NCBI GenBank assembly: GCA_937912225.1
Contig: CALDOJ010000036.1
Span: 31,191 to 95,190, forward strand
Direction: 5' to 3'
Source of the DNA: Candidatus Woesearchaeota archaeon
GTDB lineage: Archaea > Nanobdellota > Nanobdellia > Woesearchaeales > GCA-2686295
DNA: 64,000 bases
Below the pieces are notes generated by a model. It ran no database searches, was not told where the DNA came from, and saw nothing but the letters and a program-made list of their open reading frames with translations. This document shows positions 18,926 through 50,960 of this stretch, in pieces. Positions within the stretch are counted from its first letter, which is position 1. Every line of letters begins with the position of its first letter. Position numbers and translations under genes: made by a program.

Positions 18926-19775
18926 TATCTACCTCTTTTTTTTCTTTTAATATGTTTGACATTATTCTCTTATCCCTTATCCCTTTAATGTTTTTCGCTA
19001 ACTCAGGTTGATGAAAAACAAATTCAATCCACATTGAAAAATCATTATCATAGTTTCGTGTATGAAACTCAAAATCCTCAGGGTTCATAAAACTTAAAGC
19101 AGTTATTAAATCTTGTATTGATGTTAAAAGCTTCCCACTTTTCAAACGAAAGAATTTTTCAGGATCTATTACTAGTTCAAGTTTTGGTTCTGTAACTGTT
19201 TCATCAACTTCACTCTGAGGCTCTACTTCTAGCTTATCAGATTCTGTGGTTGTGACTGTCTCTTCAGAAGTATTTTCTGGCTTAACTGGTTCATTCTGAG
19301 GCTCTACTTCTGGTACATAAGAAGTTTCCTTCTGAACACTAGAACTTTCAGTTCTTTGTGTACTAGTAGCTTCGTTACTATTTTCTTCTTTTATATCTAA
19401 ATCTTCTCTGTTTGAATTATTCTCTTTCATTCCTTCTTCAAAAGCTTGAGCCTTTTCTTCATTTAACTTTTCTTTAATCTTTCTTTCAACTTCTGCTTTA
19501 ATATCTACCAAAGGTAATCTTGATTCTTCAATTAATTCCTCTTCTGAAAATTTTAAAATATTCTTAATAACTTCATAGTCTTCTTGTTTTCGAGTATACT
19601 GAGCCCATCGTAATTTTGAATCAAGACTTCTAAGATGAAAGTCTGCTATTGAAGGATTATGACCTTCTTTTCTTAATTCAGTTATTCTTGACTTTAACTC
19701 TCGAACATGACTTCTCAAATCCTCTGTTAAAATTTCATTTTCTTTATCCGAAACTAATTGTTTATTTTTACTCAT
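18909..19775 (-). CDS. Acidic linker protein with C-terminal copy of a conserved ~65-aa 'KNDF-W' module (hypothetical)
   Basis: C-terminal EKFFRLKSGKLLTSIQDLITALSFMNPEDFEFHTRNYDNDFSMWIEFVFHQPELAKNI, preceded by a long E/T/V-rich acidic low-complexity region. 4-nt overlap with the next gene. Confidence 0.6.
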   Translation of the reverse strand: MSKNKQLVSDKENEILTEDLRSHVRELKSRITELRKEGHNPSIADFHLRSLDSKLRWAQYTRKQEDYEVIKNILKFSEEELIEESRLPLVDIKAEVERKIKEKLNEEKAQAFEEGMKENNSNREDLDIKEENSNEATSTQRTESSSVQKETSYVPEVEPQNEPVKPENTSEETVTTTESDKLEVEPQSEVDETVTEPKLELVIDPEKFFRLKSGKLLTSIQDLITALSFMNPEDFEFHTRNYDNDFSMWIEFVFHQPELAKNIKGIRDKRIMSNILKEKKEVDNGFLE

Positions 19776-20602
19776 TTCAATTTCTCATTTACTTCATCAT
19801 TCAAGTCATTTATATCAGAATCAAGTGCTCTTACTTGTCCTTCTACAAAACTTGGTTTTCCAAAAAATAATTTTCCTAAAAATTTATTATTACTAATTTT
19901 TTCTTTTATTTTTTGAAAAAAGTTTTTCTTTGATTTTTCTTTTGAATGAACTGATTCTTTCTTTTTAACTTTCTTTTTCACTTCCTTTTTTACTTCTTCG
20001 TCTTCCTTCTTAATTTCTTCAGCTTCTTTTTCAACTTTTTTCTCAGATTTTTCCTCTCTTGCTTCTTTTGATTCATCAAGTGCTTTTTGAATTTCTACAA
20101 CTTCAGGACTATTGTCTTCTTCAATTGTTTTATTCAAATTAATTTCTGGCAATTTAGAATCAGAATCAACTTCTTTTTCTGGCTCAACCAAGGGTTTAAC
20201 TTCTTGTTCATCAGCTTCTTTATTTGAATCGTCAGAAGTTTCATCTTTGAACATATCATCAATTTTCTTATTAGATTCTTGTTCTGATTCAAAAGGTTCT
20301 TTCTTAACAGGTTCTGATTCTGTTTTCTGATTTTCATCCGGATTCTTAATTAAATCGTGAAAATAATCATCGATTAATTTAATCATAGAATCCTTATCTT
20401 TAGCTTTTTCTAAAACATCCGCCAGTTCATTATTTTTGAAAACACCTTTAACCCAAATAGCAAAATCATTCTTCTCTGAATTAACATGCAAAGCGAATTC
20501 TTCATCAGATCCTTTATCTAAAAAAACTCTAAATTCACCTATAGTTCTCAAAACTTCTCCATTGCCTAAATAAAAATATTCCTCTTGTTTCAAATTCCTC
20601 AC
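19772..20602 (-). CDS. Protein with N-terminal 'KNDF-W' module followed by a highly charged K/E-rich low-complexity tail (hypothetical)
   Basis: N-terminal EYFYLGNGEVLRTIGEFRVFLDKGSDEEFALHVNSEKNDFAIWVKGVFKNNELADVLEK, then a KE-rich disordered region. Confidence 0.6.
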   Translation of the reverse strand: MRNLKQEEYFYLGNGEVLRTIGEFRVFLDKGSDEEFALHVNSEKNDFAIWVKGVFKNNELADVLEKAKDKDSMIKLIDDYFHDLIKNPDENQKTESEPVKKEPFESEQESNKKIDDMFKDETSDDSNKEADEQEVKPLVEPEKEVDSDSKLPEINLNKTIEEDNSPEVVEIQKALDESKEAREEKSEKKVEKEAEEIKKEDEEVKKEVKKKVKKKESVHSKEKSKKNFFQKIKEKISNNKFLGKLFFGKPSFVEGQVRALDSDINDLNDEVNEKLK

Positions 20603-20639
20603 CTCTTATGTGGATTTATTATTATTTGTTGTTTTCTAA

Positions 20640-28588: not shown

Positions 28589-29215
28589 ATGAATTTATTG
28601 ATATTAGGACCACAAGCTTCCGGAAAAGGAACACAAGCAAAAAGAATTGCTAAAGAACTAGGCATACCACACATCTCAACAGGAGATATTTTTAGAGACA
28701 ATATTGAAAGAGGAACAGATTTAGGGAAGAAAGTTCTTATGATTCAAGGCGGAGAACTAGTTCCGGATGAATTAACAAATAGCATCGTTAAAAATAGACT
28801 AAAACAAGAAGATTGTGCAAATGGATACATATTGGACGGGTATCCAAGAAATCTTGTACAAGCAGAATACTTAAACAGTATTAGCCAAATAGATGCAGTT
28901 ATTGATTTAGAAGTTCCAACAAAAGTAATAATGGAAAGAATTACTAGCAGAAGAGCTTGTGGAGATTGTAAAGCAGATTATAATATAATTTATATGAAAC
29001 CAAAACAAGAAGGTATCTGTGATAAATGTGAAGGAGAATTAATTCAACGAAAAGACGATACTCCAGGACCAATTAAAAAAAGATTAGATATTTATTATTC
29101 CCAAACACAACCATTAATTAGCTTCTATAAAGAACAAGGAGTCTCTCTTAAAGAAATTGATGGAGTAGGAACACCTGGCGAGATTCTTGATAGAATAATG
29201 AATGTTTTGCGTTAA
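28589..29215 (+). CDS. adk: Adenylate kinase (long, Zn-binding LID type)
   Basis: P-loop LILGPQASGKGTQAKRIAKELGIPHISTGDIFR. LID CGDCKADYN…CDKCEG. GAGGGT Shine-Dalgarno upstream. Confidence 0.92.
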   Translation: MNLLILGPQASGKGTQAKRIAKELGIPHISTGDIFRDNIERGTDLGKKVLMIQGGELVPDELTNSIVKNRLKQEDCANGYILDGYPRNLVQAEYLNSISQIDAVIDLEVPTKVIMERITSRRACGDCKADYNIIYMKPKQEGICDKCEGELIQRKDDTPGPIKKRLDIYYSQTQPLISFYKEQGVSLKEIDGVGTPGEILDRIMNVLR

Positions 29216-29736
29216 AGCATACGATTATACAATTGTTCTTTTACTTTTTTTATTTCTTGTTTTCCAGTATGAATACTATTAGTAAATAATCCTAAAACCA
29301 TGCCAAGACTAAAACCTGCACCAATAATCATGCTTGAAGCGTGATAAATTTCACCAAACATTTCTTCAAACCTATAACCAGAAAAAGCAACTGCTGCAAC
29401 CCCGAATATGGTTGTCGCCATTAAACCATTACCAATGGGTTCAGGCATTTTCCAAATAGGACCTGTTTGAAAATAACCAAATTCATCTTGAACATTTCTT
29501 AAATTAGAAATCTGAGAATTATATTCGTTCCTTTTCTTTTTATTAAACCACAAAGAATAATTAAAATTTGTTTCAATTTCATCAAAAACACCATCTATTA
29601 TTTGTTTATCTGCAGGATCTTTTTCTGTACGATTATAATTATAAGTATTGATTAAATTTTGGACAGCCGATTCTAAATCAGGAAAGAAACTTTTCTCGTA
29701 TTTTTTTTGTTTACTCACGAAACTGCTCCCAAACAC
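29212..29736 (-). CDS. Hypothetical membrane protein
   Basis: 174 aa. C-terminal half has two hydrophobic helices (GLMATTIFGVAAVAFSGY…SSMIIGAGFSLGMVLGLF). Convergent with adk, overlapping it by 4 nt. Confidence 0.45.
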   Translation of the reverse strand: MFGSSFVSKQKKYEKSFFPDLESAVQNLINTYNYNRTEKDPADKQIIDGVFDEIETNFNYSLWFNKKKRNEYNSQISNLRNVQDEFGYFQTGPIWKMPEPIGNGLMATTIFGVAAVAFSGYRFEEMFGEIYHASSMIIGAGFSLGMVLGLFTNSIHTGKQEIKKVKEQLYNRML

Positions 29737-29768
29737 CTCTTATGGATTAATTTCAGATTTATTATTAT

Positions 29769-42512: not shown

Positions 42513-44576
42513 TTCTTGCATGCTTTTTGCATGAGCGCTTGTGAAATGATCTTTAAGTTTTTCATAAGCCTCGGCAATATCTTTAGTGGCACTTGGTCTA
42601 ACTTTTTTCAATGCTTCTTCAAAGAAAGCCATTTTTACAGTTTTAGCTTTCATATCATCTCTTAAAGCCATGATTGCTGCTTCTCTACAAACAGCTTCAA
42701 GATCTGCACCTACATATCCTTCGGTTTTATCGACTAACTTTTTCAAATCAAAATCTTTTGCTAATGGCATTCCTTTAGTATGAACTTTAAAGATTGCATT
42801 TCTGCTTCCTTTATCAGGAACAGGTGCTAAAACAATTCTATCAAATCTTCCTGGACGAAGAAGAGCAGTATCAAGCATGTCAGGTCTATTCGTTGCAGCA
42901 ATTATTACAACATCATTTAAATCTTGTAAACCATCCATTTCAGTTAAAAGTTGATTAACAACTCTTTCATTAACTTTTGAGTCAGCACTATCACTTCTTT
43001 TATGAGCCATAGAATCAATTTCATCAAAGAAAATTATTGTTGGAGATGTTTGTCTTGCTTTTTCAAAGATTTTTCTAACAGCTTTTTCACTTTCACCAAC
43101 CCACTTACTTAAAAGTTCAGGTCCTTTAACAAGAATAAAGTTTGCTTCACTTTCAGTTGCAACAGCTTTTGCAAGCAAAGTTTTACCAGTACCTGGTGCT
43201 CCATAAAGAAGAACTCCTCGAGGAGGTGTAATTCCCAATCTTGAAAAAGCTTCTTTTTTCTTCAAAGGCCATTCAACAGCTTCAATAAGTTCTTGTTTAA
43301 CTTCTTCTAAACCGCCAATATCAGTCCATTTAATATTTGGAATTTCAATTAATACTTCTCTCATAGCACTAGGTCTTACGACTTTTAATGATTCTTTAAA
43401 ATCATCTTGAGATAACTTTAATTTTTCAAGAACTTCTTGAGGAATTGTTTTCTCATCTTCAAGTTCTAGATCAGGAAGAACTCGTCTTAAAACAATCATA
43501 GCAGCTTCTCTTGCAAGAGCTGAAAGATCAGCACCTACAAACCCATGAGTTATTTCAGCCATTCGTTTTAAATTAACATTTTTATTAAGAGGCATGTTTC
43601 TAGTATGAATTTGTAAAATTTTATGTCGTCCTTCTTTTTGTGGAACACCAATTTCAATTTCTCGATCAAACCTACCAGGTCTTCGAAGTGCAGGATCAAG
43701 CGAGTTTGGAATGTTTGTTGCTGCAATTACAACTACTTTTCCTCGACTTTTTAACCCATCCATTAAAGCTAATAACTGAGCAACAACTCTTCTCTCTACT
43801 TCGCCTTTGCTTTCTTCTCGCTTAGAAGCAATAGCGTCAATTTCATCAATAAAAATTATTGAAGGACCATTCTTTTCTGCTTCTTCAAACTTCTTTCTAA
43901 GATTCTCTTCACTCTGACCATAATATTTACTCATAATTTCAGGACCATTAATTAAAAGAAAATTAGCATTTGTTTCATTAGCAACAGCTTTTGCTAACAA
44001 AGTTTTACCAGTTCCTGGAGGACCATGAAGCAGTACTCCTTTTGGTGGTTCAATTCCAAGAGTTTCAAAAACTTCAGGATGTTTTAATGGTAATTCAACC
44101 ATTTCTCTAACTTTTTTAATTTCAGATTCAAGTCCACCAACATCTTCATATGAAATATCAAAAACTTTTTCTTCTTGAACTTCAACTGATTCTGTTGAGT
44201 ATTTTACTTCTGTATGTTCTGTGATTAAAACTGCTTGTTTTGGATTTGCATCAGTTACGATGAATTTTAAATCTCCAAGACCAAAGCCCATCATAGTATC
44301 ATCAAGCATTGAAAACATATCATCAAAGAAAGGGTTACTAGACATAGTGTTTCTTCTTCTTTTAGTTCCGCCAAGCGAAACAATGTCTCCTTTCATAACT
44401 GCTCGTCCTAAAAGTCCTTTTTTGAAAATCTCAGGATTTGCTCGTACCATCACACCTTTTCGAGCTGGCGCAATAGTGATTTTTTTAGCTTCTTTAACAT
44501 CAACTTTTTTGACAGTAACCATTTCACCAATAGTTGTTTTAGCATTTCTTCTAATTAAACCGTCCATTCGAATCAT
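42489..44576 (-). CDS. cdc48: CDC48/VCP-like AAA+ ATPase (tandem D1/D2 AAA domains)
   Basis: Two Walker A/B cassettes ([15 protein letters not shown]…IIFIDEIDA and [15 protein letters not shown]…IIFFDEIDS) with SRH motifs. Coordinates are from the first ATG. The N-domain reading frame (…[26 protein letters not shown]…[14 protein letters not shown]…) continues 222 nt upstream to 44798 without any ATG/GTG/TTG (see findings). Confidence 0.9.
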
Positions 44577-44825
44577 GTTTAAACCAATATCTCCTGGTAG
44601 CGCCCTATCAGCTATTGCAACAGTAACTCTAGCACCATTAATTTCAACAATGTTTCCAGGTCTAATATCTAATTCTCGTAAGAAAGAACTATCAACTCTA
44701 ACAATTCCTTTGTTAACATCTTCTTGTATTGCTTCAGCAACTTTAAGTCTAATTTCGTTTGTAATGGTTATCCCCTCAAATAAATATTTTTGATGACTTT
44801 AGAGAATAAATAACTCTTTAAATTC

Positions 44826-44969
44826 TTTTTGGTTTAATGACTCCATTCTTTAAGAAAAATCATTATCCAAAAAAAGAATATTTTTGATTTAATGACTCCA
44901 TTCTTTAAAAAAAGTCATTATCCAAAAAAGAACTTTTTTGGTTTAATAACTGATTTCTTTAAAAAAAAC
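44826..44969. repeat. About 55-bp tandem direct repeat (2.6 copies), each with an AATGAC-N17-GTCATT palindrome, upstream of cdc48
   Basis: Copy 1 at 44826-44880 and copy 2 at 44881-44933 (TTTTTG[GA]TTTAATGACTCCATTCTTTAA…TCATTATCCAAAAAAG). Degenerate partial third copy at 44934-44969. Confidence 0.7.
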
Positions 44970-45011
44970 TAAAAGAAATAGAAGGGGAAAAAATAATCTA
45001 AAAAAAAATGT

Positions 45012-45416
45012 TTATTGTTGTTTAAGCTTTGGTAATGGGATTGGTGCTGGTAGGCCCAGATCTTTACTTAAGATTAAAGCTTGAATATTGCATTTGTTAA
45101 GAACATTGTTCATAACTTGGTTTGTTGCTTCTTTAGGAATAGATTTGTTCTTTTTCCAAGAATCAAGAACTTCTTTAGCTGTTTTTTCATCAGATAACAA
45201 TACTAATTCGCCATTTAATTCTATATTTCCAATTCCAGGTTCATATTTTGAAGTGTATTGAAAAGTAAACTTCATTGCTTTTTGGTCACCACCAATTGCT
45301 AATTTTGCTTCTTTAACATCTTTAATAGTAACATTATTACTAATGCTAACTTTACCTGTAACAGGAAGTTTTTTTTCAATCATCATTTTTGTGAAATTTA
45401 ATCCAACTATTGCCAT
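45012..45416 (-). CDS. Hypothetical protein
   Basis: 134 aa, soluble, no recognisable motif. Confidence 0.4.
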   Translation of the reverse strand: MAIVGLNFTKMMIEKKLPVTGKVSISNNVTIKDVKEAKLAIGGDQKAMKFTFQYTSKYEPGIGNIELNGELVLLSDEKTAKEVLDSWKKNKSIPKEATNQVMNNVLNKCNIQALILSKDLGLPAPIPLPKLKQQ

Positions 45417-49757: not shown

Positions 49758-50954
49758 TTATAAAGTTAACCCGTAATCATCCGAAAGAGCTTCGGAGTGT
49801 GAACCTTTAAAAAATTTAAATGAAACAATTAATCCTAAAAATAGTAATAATCCGTTCACAACAAACAAAACTCCAAATCCATAAATATCAACTATAAGTC
49901 CGCTAAAAATATAGCTTAAAAAACCACCAATTTTTGCTAATGACATGTATGAACAAACAACTTCTGCTTCTTTATTTAACCGTTCACCAATATCTGACAT
50001 TAAAGTCCATGCAGATACATTCCAAATTGAAGACCCTATTCCTAAGAAAAAAAGTATTACTAATAATATTGTATAGTTTGATGCAAATGCTAATAATAGT
50101 AATGAAAAACTATAAATTAAAATTCCTACAAACATAACTTTTGACCTGCCAAATTTATCTGCTAAATGACCAAAATAGAATTGAAATAAATGTGCTATTC
50201 CAATAAAAAATATTGCTACTCCAATAAAACTATAACCTAAATTTAATTTTTCAATAATAAATAATGGTAAAAAAACTTTAATTGCAGGTTGACTTGCATG
50301 TGCAACAAAGCCAAGTATCGCCATTCCTCTTAATGGTCTGATTGATAAAAAATTCTTTAAACTATCTAAGAAATTAAAATCATTTTTGTGAATCTTTTTC
50401 CTTAATTTTGGATTTCTAAAAACAAGTATAAAGCTTAATAGAATTAAAAGAAATGCTGTTAATAAGAATGGTGCTTTAACAAATAATTTATCGGCTAGAA
50501 CTCCGCCAAGAACTGGTGCAATAATTGCACCGATGTATTGTATGCTAAGACTAATTCCAGAATATTTTCCTCTATCTTTATCTGAAAGATGATCTTCAAC
50601 TTTAGCTAATGCAATTAAAGTTACGATAGTTATTGCAAGTGCATCAAGAATTCTTGCAAATGCAATCAAAGACCATGAAGTTCCTGAAAGATAAATTATT
50701 ATTGCAAGAAGCTGTATCATTAAACCAAATATTATTATTCTAAGCTTTCCAATATCATCTGCTAATTTTCCAAAAATTGGTGAAAAGAAAATTATTGCAA
50801 GCGGCATAACTGAGAATATTAATCCTAATTGAAAATTATCAAAACCTAAACTCTTAATATAAGGAGCTAAAACCGGTTCTATAAGAAAAATTGCGAAAGT
50901 AAAAAATACACTTATGCCTGTAGCTTTTATATATTCTCTAAAGTGCAATTTCAA
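49758..50954 (-). CDS. MFS transporter
   Basis: 398 aa, 12 predicted TM helices. MFS-type loop motif GKLADDIGKLRII between TM2 and TM3 and a repeat of it in the second half (GHLADKFGRSKVM). Confidence 0.8.
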   Translation of the reverse strand: MKLHFREYIKATGISVFFTFAIFLIEPVLAPYIKSLGFDNFQLGLIFSVMPLAIIFFSPIFGKLADDIGKLRIIIFGLMIQLLAIIIYLSGTSWSLIAFARILDALAITIVTLIALAKVEDHLSDKDRGKYSGISLSIQYIGAIIAPVLGGVLADKLFVKAPFLLTAFLLILLSFILVFRNPKLRKKIHKNDFNFLDSLKNFLSIRPLRGMAILGFVAHASQPAIKVFLPLFIIEKLNLGYSFIGVAIFFIGIAHLFQFYFGHLADKFGRSKVMFVGILIYSFSLLLLAFASNYTILLVILFFLGIGSSIWNVSAWTLMSDIGERLNKEAEVVCSYMSLAKIGGFLSYIFSGLIVDIYGFGVLFVVNGLLLFLGLIVSFKFFKGSHSEALSDDYGLTL

Positions 50955-50960
50955 ACCTCT

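Follow-up and report, generated by a model that had tools for sequence, protein, structure and literature searches.

Introduction

The bacterial genetic code (table 11) permits ATT and ATA as rare alternative start codons. The classical case is bacterial infC, which encodes IF3 and whose AUU start is autoregulatory (Butler et al., 1987, as cited in PMC4705826). For archaea, the reference point is initiation in vitro; binding of an AUU mRNA to 30S complexes occurs in the S. solfataricus system only if aIF1 is left out (PMC4705826; PMC6237735), and because aIF1 blocks this binding, AUU is expected to be a poor archaeal start. A natural mRNA used in initiation studies, that of P. abyssi aEF1A, carries the arrangement GGAGGUGAU-UUAA-AUG (PMC6237735). 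Ribosome profiling in Haloferax found that ∼30% of putative alternative start sites are near-cognate (PMC7261190). In the Asgard tubulin gene AtubA, which had been annotated too short, a rare ATT start was inferred together with a suitably placed ribosome-binding site (PMC13394414).

Here we describe a comparable locus in a 64,000-nucleotide stretch of archaeal DNA (the window), which has a GC content of ∼29% and, from its protein matches, falls among DPANN archaea labelled Woesearchaeota or Nanoarchaeota. Comparison with orthologs indicates that it carries an intact, full-length archaeal cdc48/VAT gene of 758 amino acids, the translation of which most likely begins at an AUU codon (44765–44763, minus strand); we put the probability of this reading at roughly 0.8.

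Results

The cdc48 frame and its N domain extend upstream of the first canonical start codon

The longest cdc48 open reading frame with a canonical start runs on the minus strand from 44576 to 42489 and encodes 695 amino acids, corresponding to the database protein P0001. The frame itself remains open from 44798 down to this first ATG (44576–44574), and is closed upstream by an in-frame TAA (44801–44799). As the first-pass annotation had pointed out, none of the 74 intervening codons is ATG, GTG or TTG, and our frame scan confirmed both this and the position of the stop codon. From base composition alone, the chance of a 74-codon open stretch at 29% GC is ∼0.2%, so that the open frame here is unlikely to be accidental.

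Most of the double-psi barrel, one half of the Cdc48 N domain, is encoded by these upstream codons. The Pfam CDC48_N profile (PF02359) matches residues 17–100 of the stop-to-stop translation (44750–44499) over profile positions 1–84 of 85 (E = 6.5e-24). The first methionine is residue 75, so that ∼58 of the 84 matched residues lie ahead of it, and only a start upstream of that methionine yields a complete barrel. The earlier claim that the first half of the N domain is encoded before that ATG is borne out by this match, which begins 58 residues before the methionine.

The remainder of the protein has the expected Cdc48 architecture, with a β-clam CDC48_2 domain (PF02933, E = 4e-8), two AAA domains (PF00004 twice, E = 1.1e-99), each with Walker A and Walker B motifs in the translation, and two AAA_lid_3 domains (PF17862 twice). 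The product ends in …KPSYYG, a C-terminal hydrophobic-Tyr-X tail of the kind through which archaeal Cdc48 docks on the 20S proteasome. When aligned with Thermoplasma VAT (5g4f), VAT residue 4 pairs with residue 13 of the stop-to-stop translation, which is residue 2 of the protein as we re-annotate it. The re-annotated gene (44765–42489, minus strand) comprises 758 codons from the ATT plus the stop codon; the ATG at 44576–44574 thereby becomes Met63, and the 62 N-domain codons before it (44762–44577) are those left out of automatic gene calls. At 758 amino acids the product falls within the usual ortholog length of 757–761, and the first-pass annotation had likewise expected an ATT start to give a typical Cdc48 N-terminal length. 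Judged by its sequence, the protein is an ordinary archaeal Cdc48/VAT, and the start codon alone is unusual.

The same sequence is present in independent assemblies

One candidate raised for this locus was an assembly error, in which a canonical start codon would have been lost from the sequence rather than from the gene. Assemblies from ENA, Logan, JGI and NCBI contain P0001 on 19 contigs, which come from different samples; in the six loci compared out of these 19 contigs, the upstream DNA is the same as in the window at the start site. One of the six, the strain variant L006, differs in the 62 codons by seven synonymous changes and one non-synonymous change and yet gains no canonical start, and two other species likewise lack one. 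Among the independent contigs we found nothing to support a sequencing or assembly error, and the agreement between four sources rules it out for practical purposes; we regard its probability as negligible.

An ATT or ATA codon is common to a clade of close relatives

We aligned cdc48 from 80 species representatives (GTDB genomes) and 80 metagenome loci on the I-K-L-K-V-A-E motif, thereby carrying out the comparison of orthologous 5′ ends that had been suggested for this gene. Many orthologs (MVKD…, MPKD…, MANE…) have their ATG where the window has the ATT. All orthologs with up to 77% identity (best tblastn segment) have an ATG, GTG or TTG within codons −7 to +1 relative to this position, nearly always ATG, and often the ATG stands exactly at the codon that matches the window ATT. 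In the closest relatives, which are 72–85% identical over the whole protein, this codon is always ATT or ATA. It is ATT in the window species and its strain variant L006, in L008/L009 and in L093, and ATA in L007/L092, L010, L011 and L090. These seven species-level lineages group in a neighbour-joining tree as one clade of Woesearchaeota/Nanoarchaeota type, and as they share ancestry they do not represent seven independent events. The distance from the GGAGG core to the ATT or ATA codon is 8–9 nt in all seven. The NCBI-sourced proteins of relatives, P0002, P0005 and P0008, begin on ATA, ATA and ATT, respectively, at the aligned codon.

Where orthologs begin at a more upstream codon, many different residues occupy this position (K, N, E, T, A, P, G, D and others), which argues that isoleucine is not structurally required. 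That A-T-(A/T) has stayed invariant although synonymous sites have become saturated (see below) points to a role as an initiation codon.

Three of the seven lineages, namely the window species, L007/L092 and L008/L009, have no canonical alternative. In the four others (L010, L090, L093 and L011) a TTG at codon −3 abuts or overlaps the Shine–Dalgarno sequence (GGGGTTGAT or GGAGTTGAT, compared with the ideal GGAGGTGAT), and at −2 L011 additionally carries an ATG, just 3 nt past GGAG. The upstream TTG in these four clade members, or the ATG in the one, 2–3 codons before the aligned codon, could be the real start there.

The sister group of this clade starts cdc48 one to four codons further into the gene, on TTG, CTG, GTG or ATG, and always behind a strong Shine–Dalgarno sequence. 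Two sister lineages, L103 and L131, have a CTG at codon +2, where L099 has TTG, placed 5–6 nt past GAGGTGA or GGGGTGA, and could be further cases of a non-canonical cdc48 start. L103 has an in-frame GTG inside its Shine–Dalgarno sequence. L131 has no canonical start until codon +48 and was considered as a second lineage without one, on CTG; it was set aside because of an in-frame stop further into the gene, which may be a damaged copy. Among other high-scoring Cdc48 relatives, some are 837–881 amino acids long (P0012, P0015, P0016, P0022, P0027 and others), 80–120 residues above the usual 758, and one relative of 1218 amino acids (P0094) carries intein-type Pfam entries.

The codons between the ATT and the first ATG are under purifying selection

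For the 62 codons that separate the ATT from the first ATG, dN/dS between the window and the six other species is 0.04–0.14, close to the 0.03–0.15 obtained in the same comparison for the next 68 codons. Synonymous differences between species are near saturation (pS 0.52–0.75). Conservation of the amino acid sequence ends upstream of the ATT, where relatives have in-frame stops at codons −3 to −13. The substitution pattern thus identifies the 62 codons as being under coding (purifying) selection.

Among the species that lack a proper start, the first canonical codon of the frame is placed differently in each, at codon 63 (ATG) in the window, codon 40 (GTG) in L007 and codon 59 (ATG) in L008. 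Taken with the purifying selection, this excludes a recent loss of the start that would have split the N domain, one of the candidates offered by the first-pass annotation. Pseudogenization is excluded on the same grounds, given the dN/dS values and the saturated synonymous sites among species that share the ATT/ATA codon.

The same data bear on whether translation simply begins at the first ATG (44576), giving a 695-residue Cdc48 that lacks most of the double-psi barrel and leaving the upstream codons as an untranslated relic. Automatic gene callers do report this start (P0001), and VAT constructs with a truncated N terminus show unfoldase activity in vitro, which counts in its favour. A relic is nevertheless hard to reconcile with a dN/dS of 0.04–0.14 over 62 codons whose synonymous changes are near saturation, or with a first canonical codon that is differently placed in each species (63, 40 and 59). 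The only Shine–Dalgarno-like motif before this ATG, a GGAG, stands 14 nt away, which is not a usable distance. We consider initiation at 44576 very improbable.

The ATT lies 4 nt behind an extended Shine–Dalgarno sequence

The proposed start codon, ATT (44765–44763, minus strand), rests on the alignment of ortholog start methionines and on the ATT/ATA codons of the clade. It is preceded by an extended Shine–Dalgarno sequence, GAGGGGAT (44777–44770), seven of eight positions of which match GAGGTGAT, and by a 4-nt spacer, AACC (44769–44766). The first-pass annotation had located the GAGGGG (44777–44772) and the ATT correctly, and its proposal of a rare AUU or AUA start behind this motif gains support from the ortholog methionine alignment, from the ATT or ATA of six other lineages and from their identical Shine–Dalgarno spacing.

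The duplex that the window sequence would form with the anti-Shine–Dalgarno GAUCACCUCC, which we assume from other archaea and from the motifs before other window genes, has a calculated energy of −8.1 kcal/mol, a value reached at only 1.4% of all window positions. Over the seven lineages the energy ranges from −8.1 to −11.2 kcal/mol, compared with a median of −2.9 in 144 ATG-start orthologs (Mann–Whitney p = 2.5e-4, uncorrected for shared ancestry), many of which look leaderless. The window gene itself does not resemble a leaderless one; the Shine–Dalgarno sequence is strong, and a TATA-box-like sequence, TTTAAAGA (44822–44815, minus strand), which is putatively an archaeal promoter, lies ∼50 nt upstream of the ATT rather than ∼25 nt. 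Motifs resembling it, TTTATAAAGAG and TTTATAAATAGG, occur at the same distance in L007/L092 and L090. The initiation region is unstructured, and a structured leader was rejected as the predicted fold is no better than that of shuffled sequence. Searches of the cdc48 leader and the upstream repeats against Rfam gave no match with an E-value of 1 or below.

We also considered whether a non-canonical start might lie elsewhere, either at an ATA (44771–44769) or through readthrough or re-initiation after a 15-codon open reading frame (ATG 44846 to TAA 44799). The ATA is a second near-cognate candidate, aligned with the ATG that L011 has at −2, and the small frame ends in frame only 33 nt before the ATT. 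The ATA is nevertheless a poor alternative to the ATT, as it overlaps the 3′ end of the Shine–Dalgarno sequence and has zero spacing. Should the TATA-like box at 44822 be the promoter, transcription would begin downstream of the small frame. Readthrough or coupling from an upstream frame was rejected because the relatives have no conserved upstream open reading frame or frame relation, the upstream gene being in a different frame in L008. Taken together, a start of this kind seems improbable, and AUU at 44765–44763 is the codon that, from the sequence comparisons, is most likely to be used.

The region upstream of cdc48 has further features of its own. Three tandem copies of a 55-nt unit (44826–44989), 87% and 67% identical to the reference copy, sit between an upstream open reading frame of 134 amino acids and the cdc48 promoter region. 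AAAGAATGGAGTCATTAAA occurs in the two best copies, and the copy nearest cdc48 opens the 15-codon frame (ATG 44846) that ends at the TAA 44801–44799. In L008, L010, L011 and L093 the upstream gene ends only 27–41 nt before cdc48, so that the repeat array looks like a lineage-specific insertion. The 134-amino-acid frame (45012–45416, minus strand), directly upstream of cdc48, has no Pfam match and is 46–58% identical to an equivalent frame of 132–152 amino acids in L007, L008, L090, L094 and L096; the C-terminal motif …LPAPIPLPK(L/M)K is conserved upstream of cdc48 in L010, L011 and L093 as well. On the other side, gatD directly follows cdc48 in most of the closest relatives, with one gene between in L094 and a different gene in L090.

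cdc48 is the only gene in the window that appears to need such a start

Every stop-to-stop open reading frame in the window that reaches 90 codons or more was screened, and the nine genes in which the first ATG is distant or the gap is long were searched with Pfam. Among the ∼47 genes in the window, no other needs a non-canonical start; the gap that separates the upstream stop from the first canonical start never exceeds 33 codons in the others, compared with 74 in cdc48. Two apparent oddities were explained by TTG starts placed 6 nt after a Shine–Dalgarno sequence. Use of ATT or ATA starts across the genome was therefore rejected on the basis of this screen, in which several genes use TTG or GTG behind a Shine–Dalgarno sequence, and the figure of about one affected gene in 47 argues against a general relaxation of start-codon use. 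Other window genes have GGAGG, GAGGT or AGGTGA at aligned spacings of 6–11; as such motifs precede some genes and are missing before others, Shine–Dalgarno-led initiation serves part of this organism's genes.

Start sites at three further loci in the window are also of note. Two minus-strand genes (49758–50960 and 19772–20605) have their first in-frame TTG or GTG directly at, or overlapping with, the Shine–Dalgarno sequence (AGAGGT-TTG, GAGGTG). The spacing is better for a TTG that follows 6 nt later, and the automatic starts of these genes may be 2–3 codons too long. The frame at 29212–29739 (minus strand) has no Pfam match and has GAGGTG directly after the preceding stop; its next canonical codon is a GTG 15 nt past that motif, an unusual spacing.

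Discussion

How the AUU would be read, and whether it serves a purpose

We propose that cdc48 is translated from an mRNA with a short leader, in which the extended Shine–Dalgarno sequence GAGGGGAU (44777–44770) would pair with the 3′ end of 16S rRNA and thereby bring the AUU, which follows after 4 nt, into the P site. There, two of the three codon bases would pair with initiator Met-tRNA, and the protein would begin Met-Thr-Asn-Glu-Ile-Arg-Leu-Lys (MTNEIRLKV…). This AUU would probably initiate less strongly than an AUG and respond to aIF1, and Cdc48 synthesis might thereby be throttled; the strong Shine–Dalgarno sequence may partly compensate for the weak codon.

One interpretation of the conserved AUU/AUA is that it is a selected translational control, holding synthesis of the main unfoldase that works with the proteasome low and responsive to initiation stringency, through the level or activity of aIF1. 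We think this unlikely, although if it were true, reduced DPANN archaea would have in cdc48 an equivalent of the AUU control of bacterial infC, directed at proteostasis.

The AUU may alternatively be a start without any regulatory role, having arisen by neutral AT-biased mutation in the genome of a small population and been tolerated behind a strong Shine–Dalgarno sequence, an account that parts from the regulatory one over function only and to which we give a little less than an even chance. It fits a genome of 29% GC, the exchange of ATA and ATT within the clade, and the drift of the sister group among TTG, CTG, GTG and ATG behind strong Shine–Dalgarno sequences; compensation between start-codon strength and the Shine–Dalgarno sequence is, moreover, described in PMC5622118. 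It is less easily squared with the restriction to a single gene among the ∼47 of the window, which speaks against genome-wide relaxation, and with the persistence of ATT or ATA through synonymous saturation, none of the seven lineages having reverted to ATG. The start-codon drift in the sister group, behind equally strong Shine–Dalgarno sequences, fits either a selected or a tolerated weak start.

Consequences for annotation and for the study of archaeal initiation

With translation from the AUU, gene finders cut 63 residues off the Cdc48 of this organism, and its 695-amino-acid record, like those of 699 and 719 amino acids from two relatives, would be a gene-caller truncation. Such truncations remove much of the N domain, which binds substrates and cofactors, and would mislead structural and comparative work. 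An essential-type housekeeping gene appears to have kept a near-cognate start behind a strong Shine–Dalgarno sequence across a whole archaeal clade, and would provide a natural test case for the way in which the archaeal apparatus (aIF1, aIF2 and Shine–Dalgarno pairing) handles AUU and AUA in vivo; in vitro, aIF1 rejects AUU. What deserves notice is that a housekeeping gene conserves the trait throughout a clade, a modest point biologically, and that truncated records enter the databases as a result, which is the practical point.

Comparison with known systems

At the level of the protein, the cdc48 product resembles Thermoplasma VAT (5g4f) in having a double-psi barrel and β-clam N domain, two AAA domains and a …YYG tail. 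At the level of the mRNA, it has the same extended Shine–Dalgarno sequence and 4-nt spacer as the P. abyssi aEF1A message, but where the latter has AUG the cdc48 clade would start on AUU or AUA.

The resemblance to infC lies in a conserved AUU that is expected to be poorly read when the fidelity factor is abundant, the archaeal discriminator in vitro being aIF1. The two systems differ in their products, however, as Cdc48 is neither aIF1 nor IF3. It is not an initiation factor, so that there is no obvious feedback loop; cdc48 falls outside the autoregulatory type, and the resemblance to infC is limited to the codon. The hosts differ too, since cdc48 belongs to an archaeon with a eukaryotic-type initiation apparatus.

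A further parallel is with AtubA and other rare AUU and AUA starts, in which, as here, a conserved domain extends before the first canonical start, a near-cognate codon is properly spaced from a ribosome-binding site and the database proteins are truncated. Whereas AtubA is a single case, the ATT or ATA start of cdc48 would be common to a clade of at least seven species-level lineages and concerns a housekeeping gene. A rare near-cognate start that yields truncated gene calls is a known phenomenon, to which cdc48 adds another instance.
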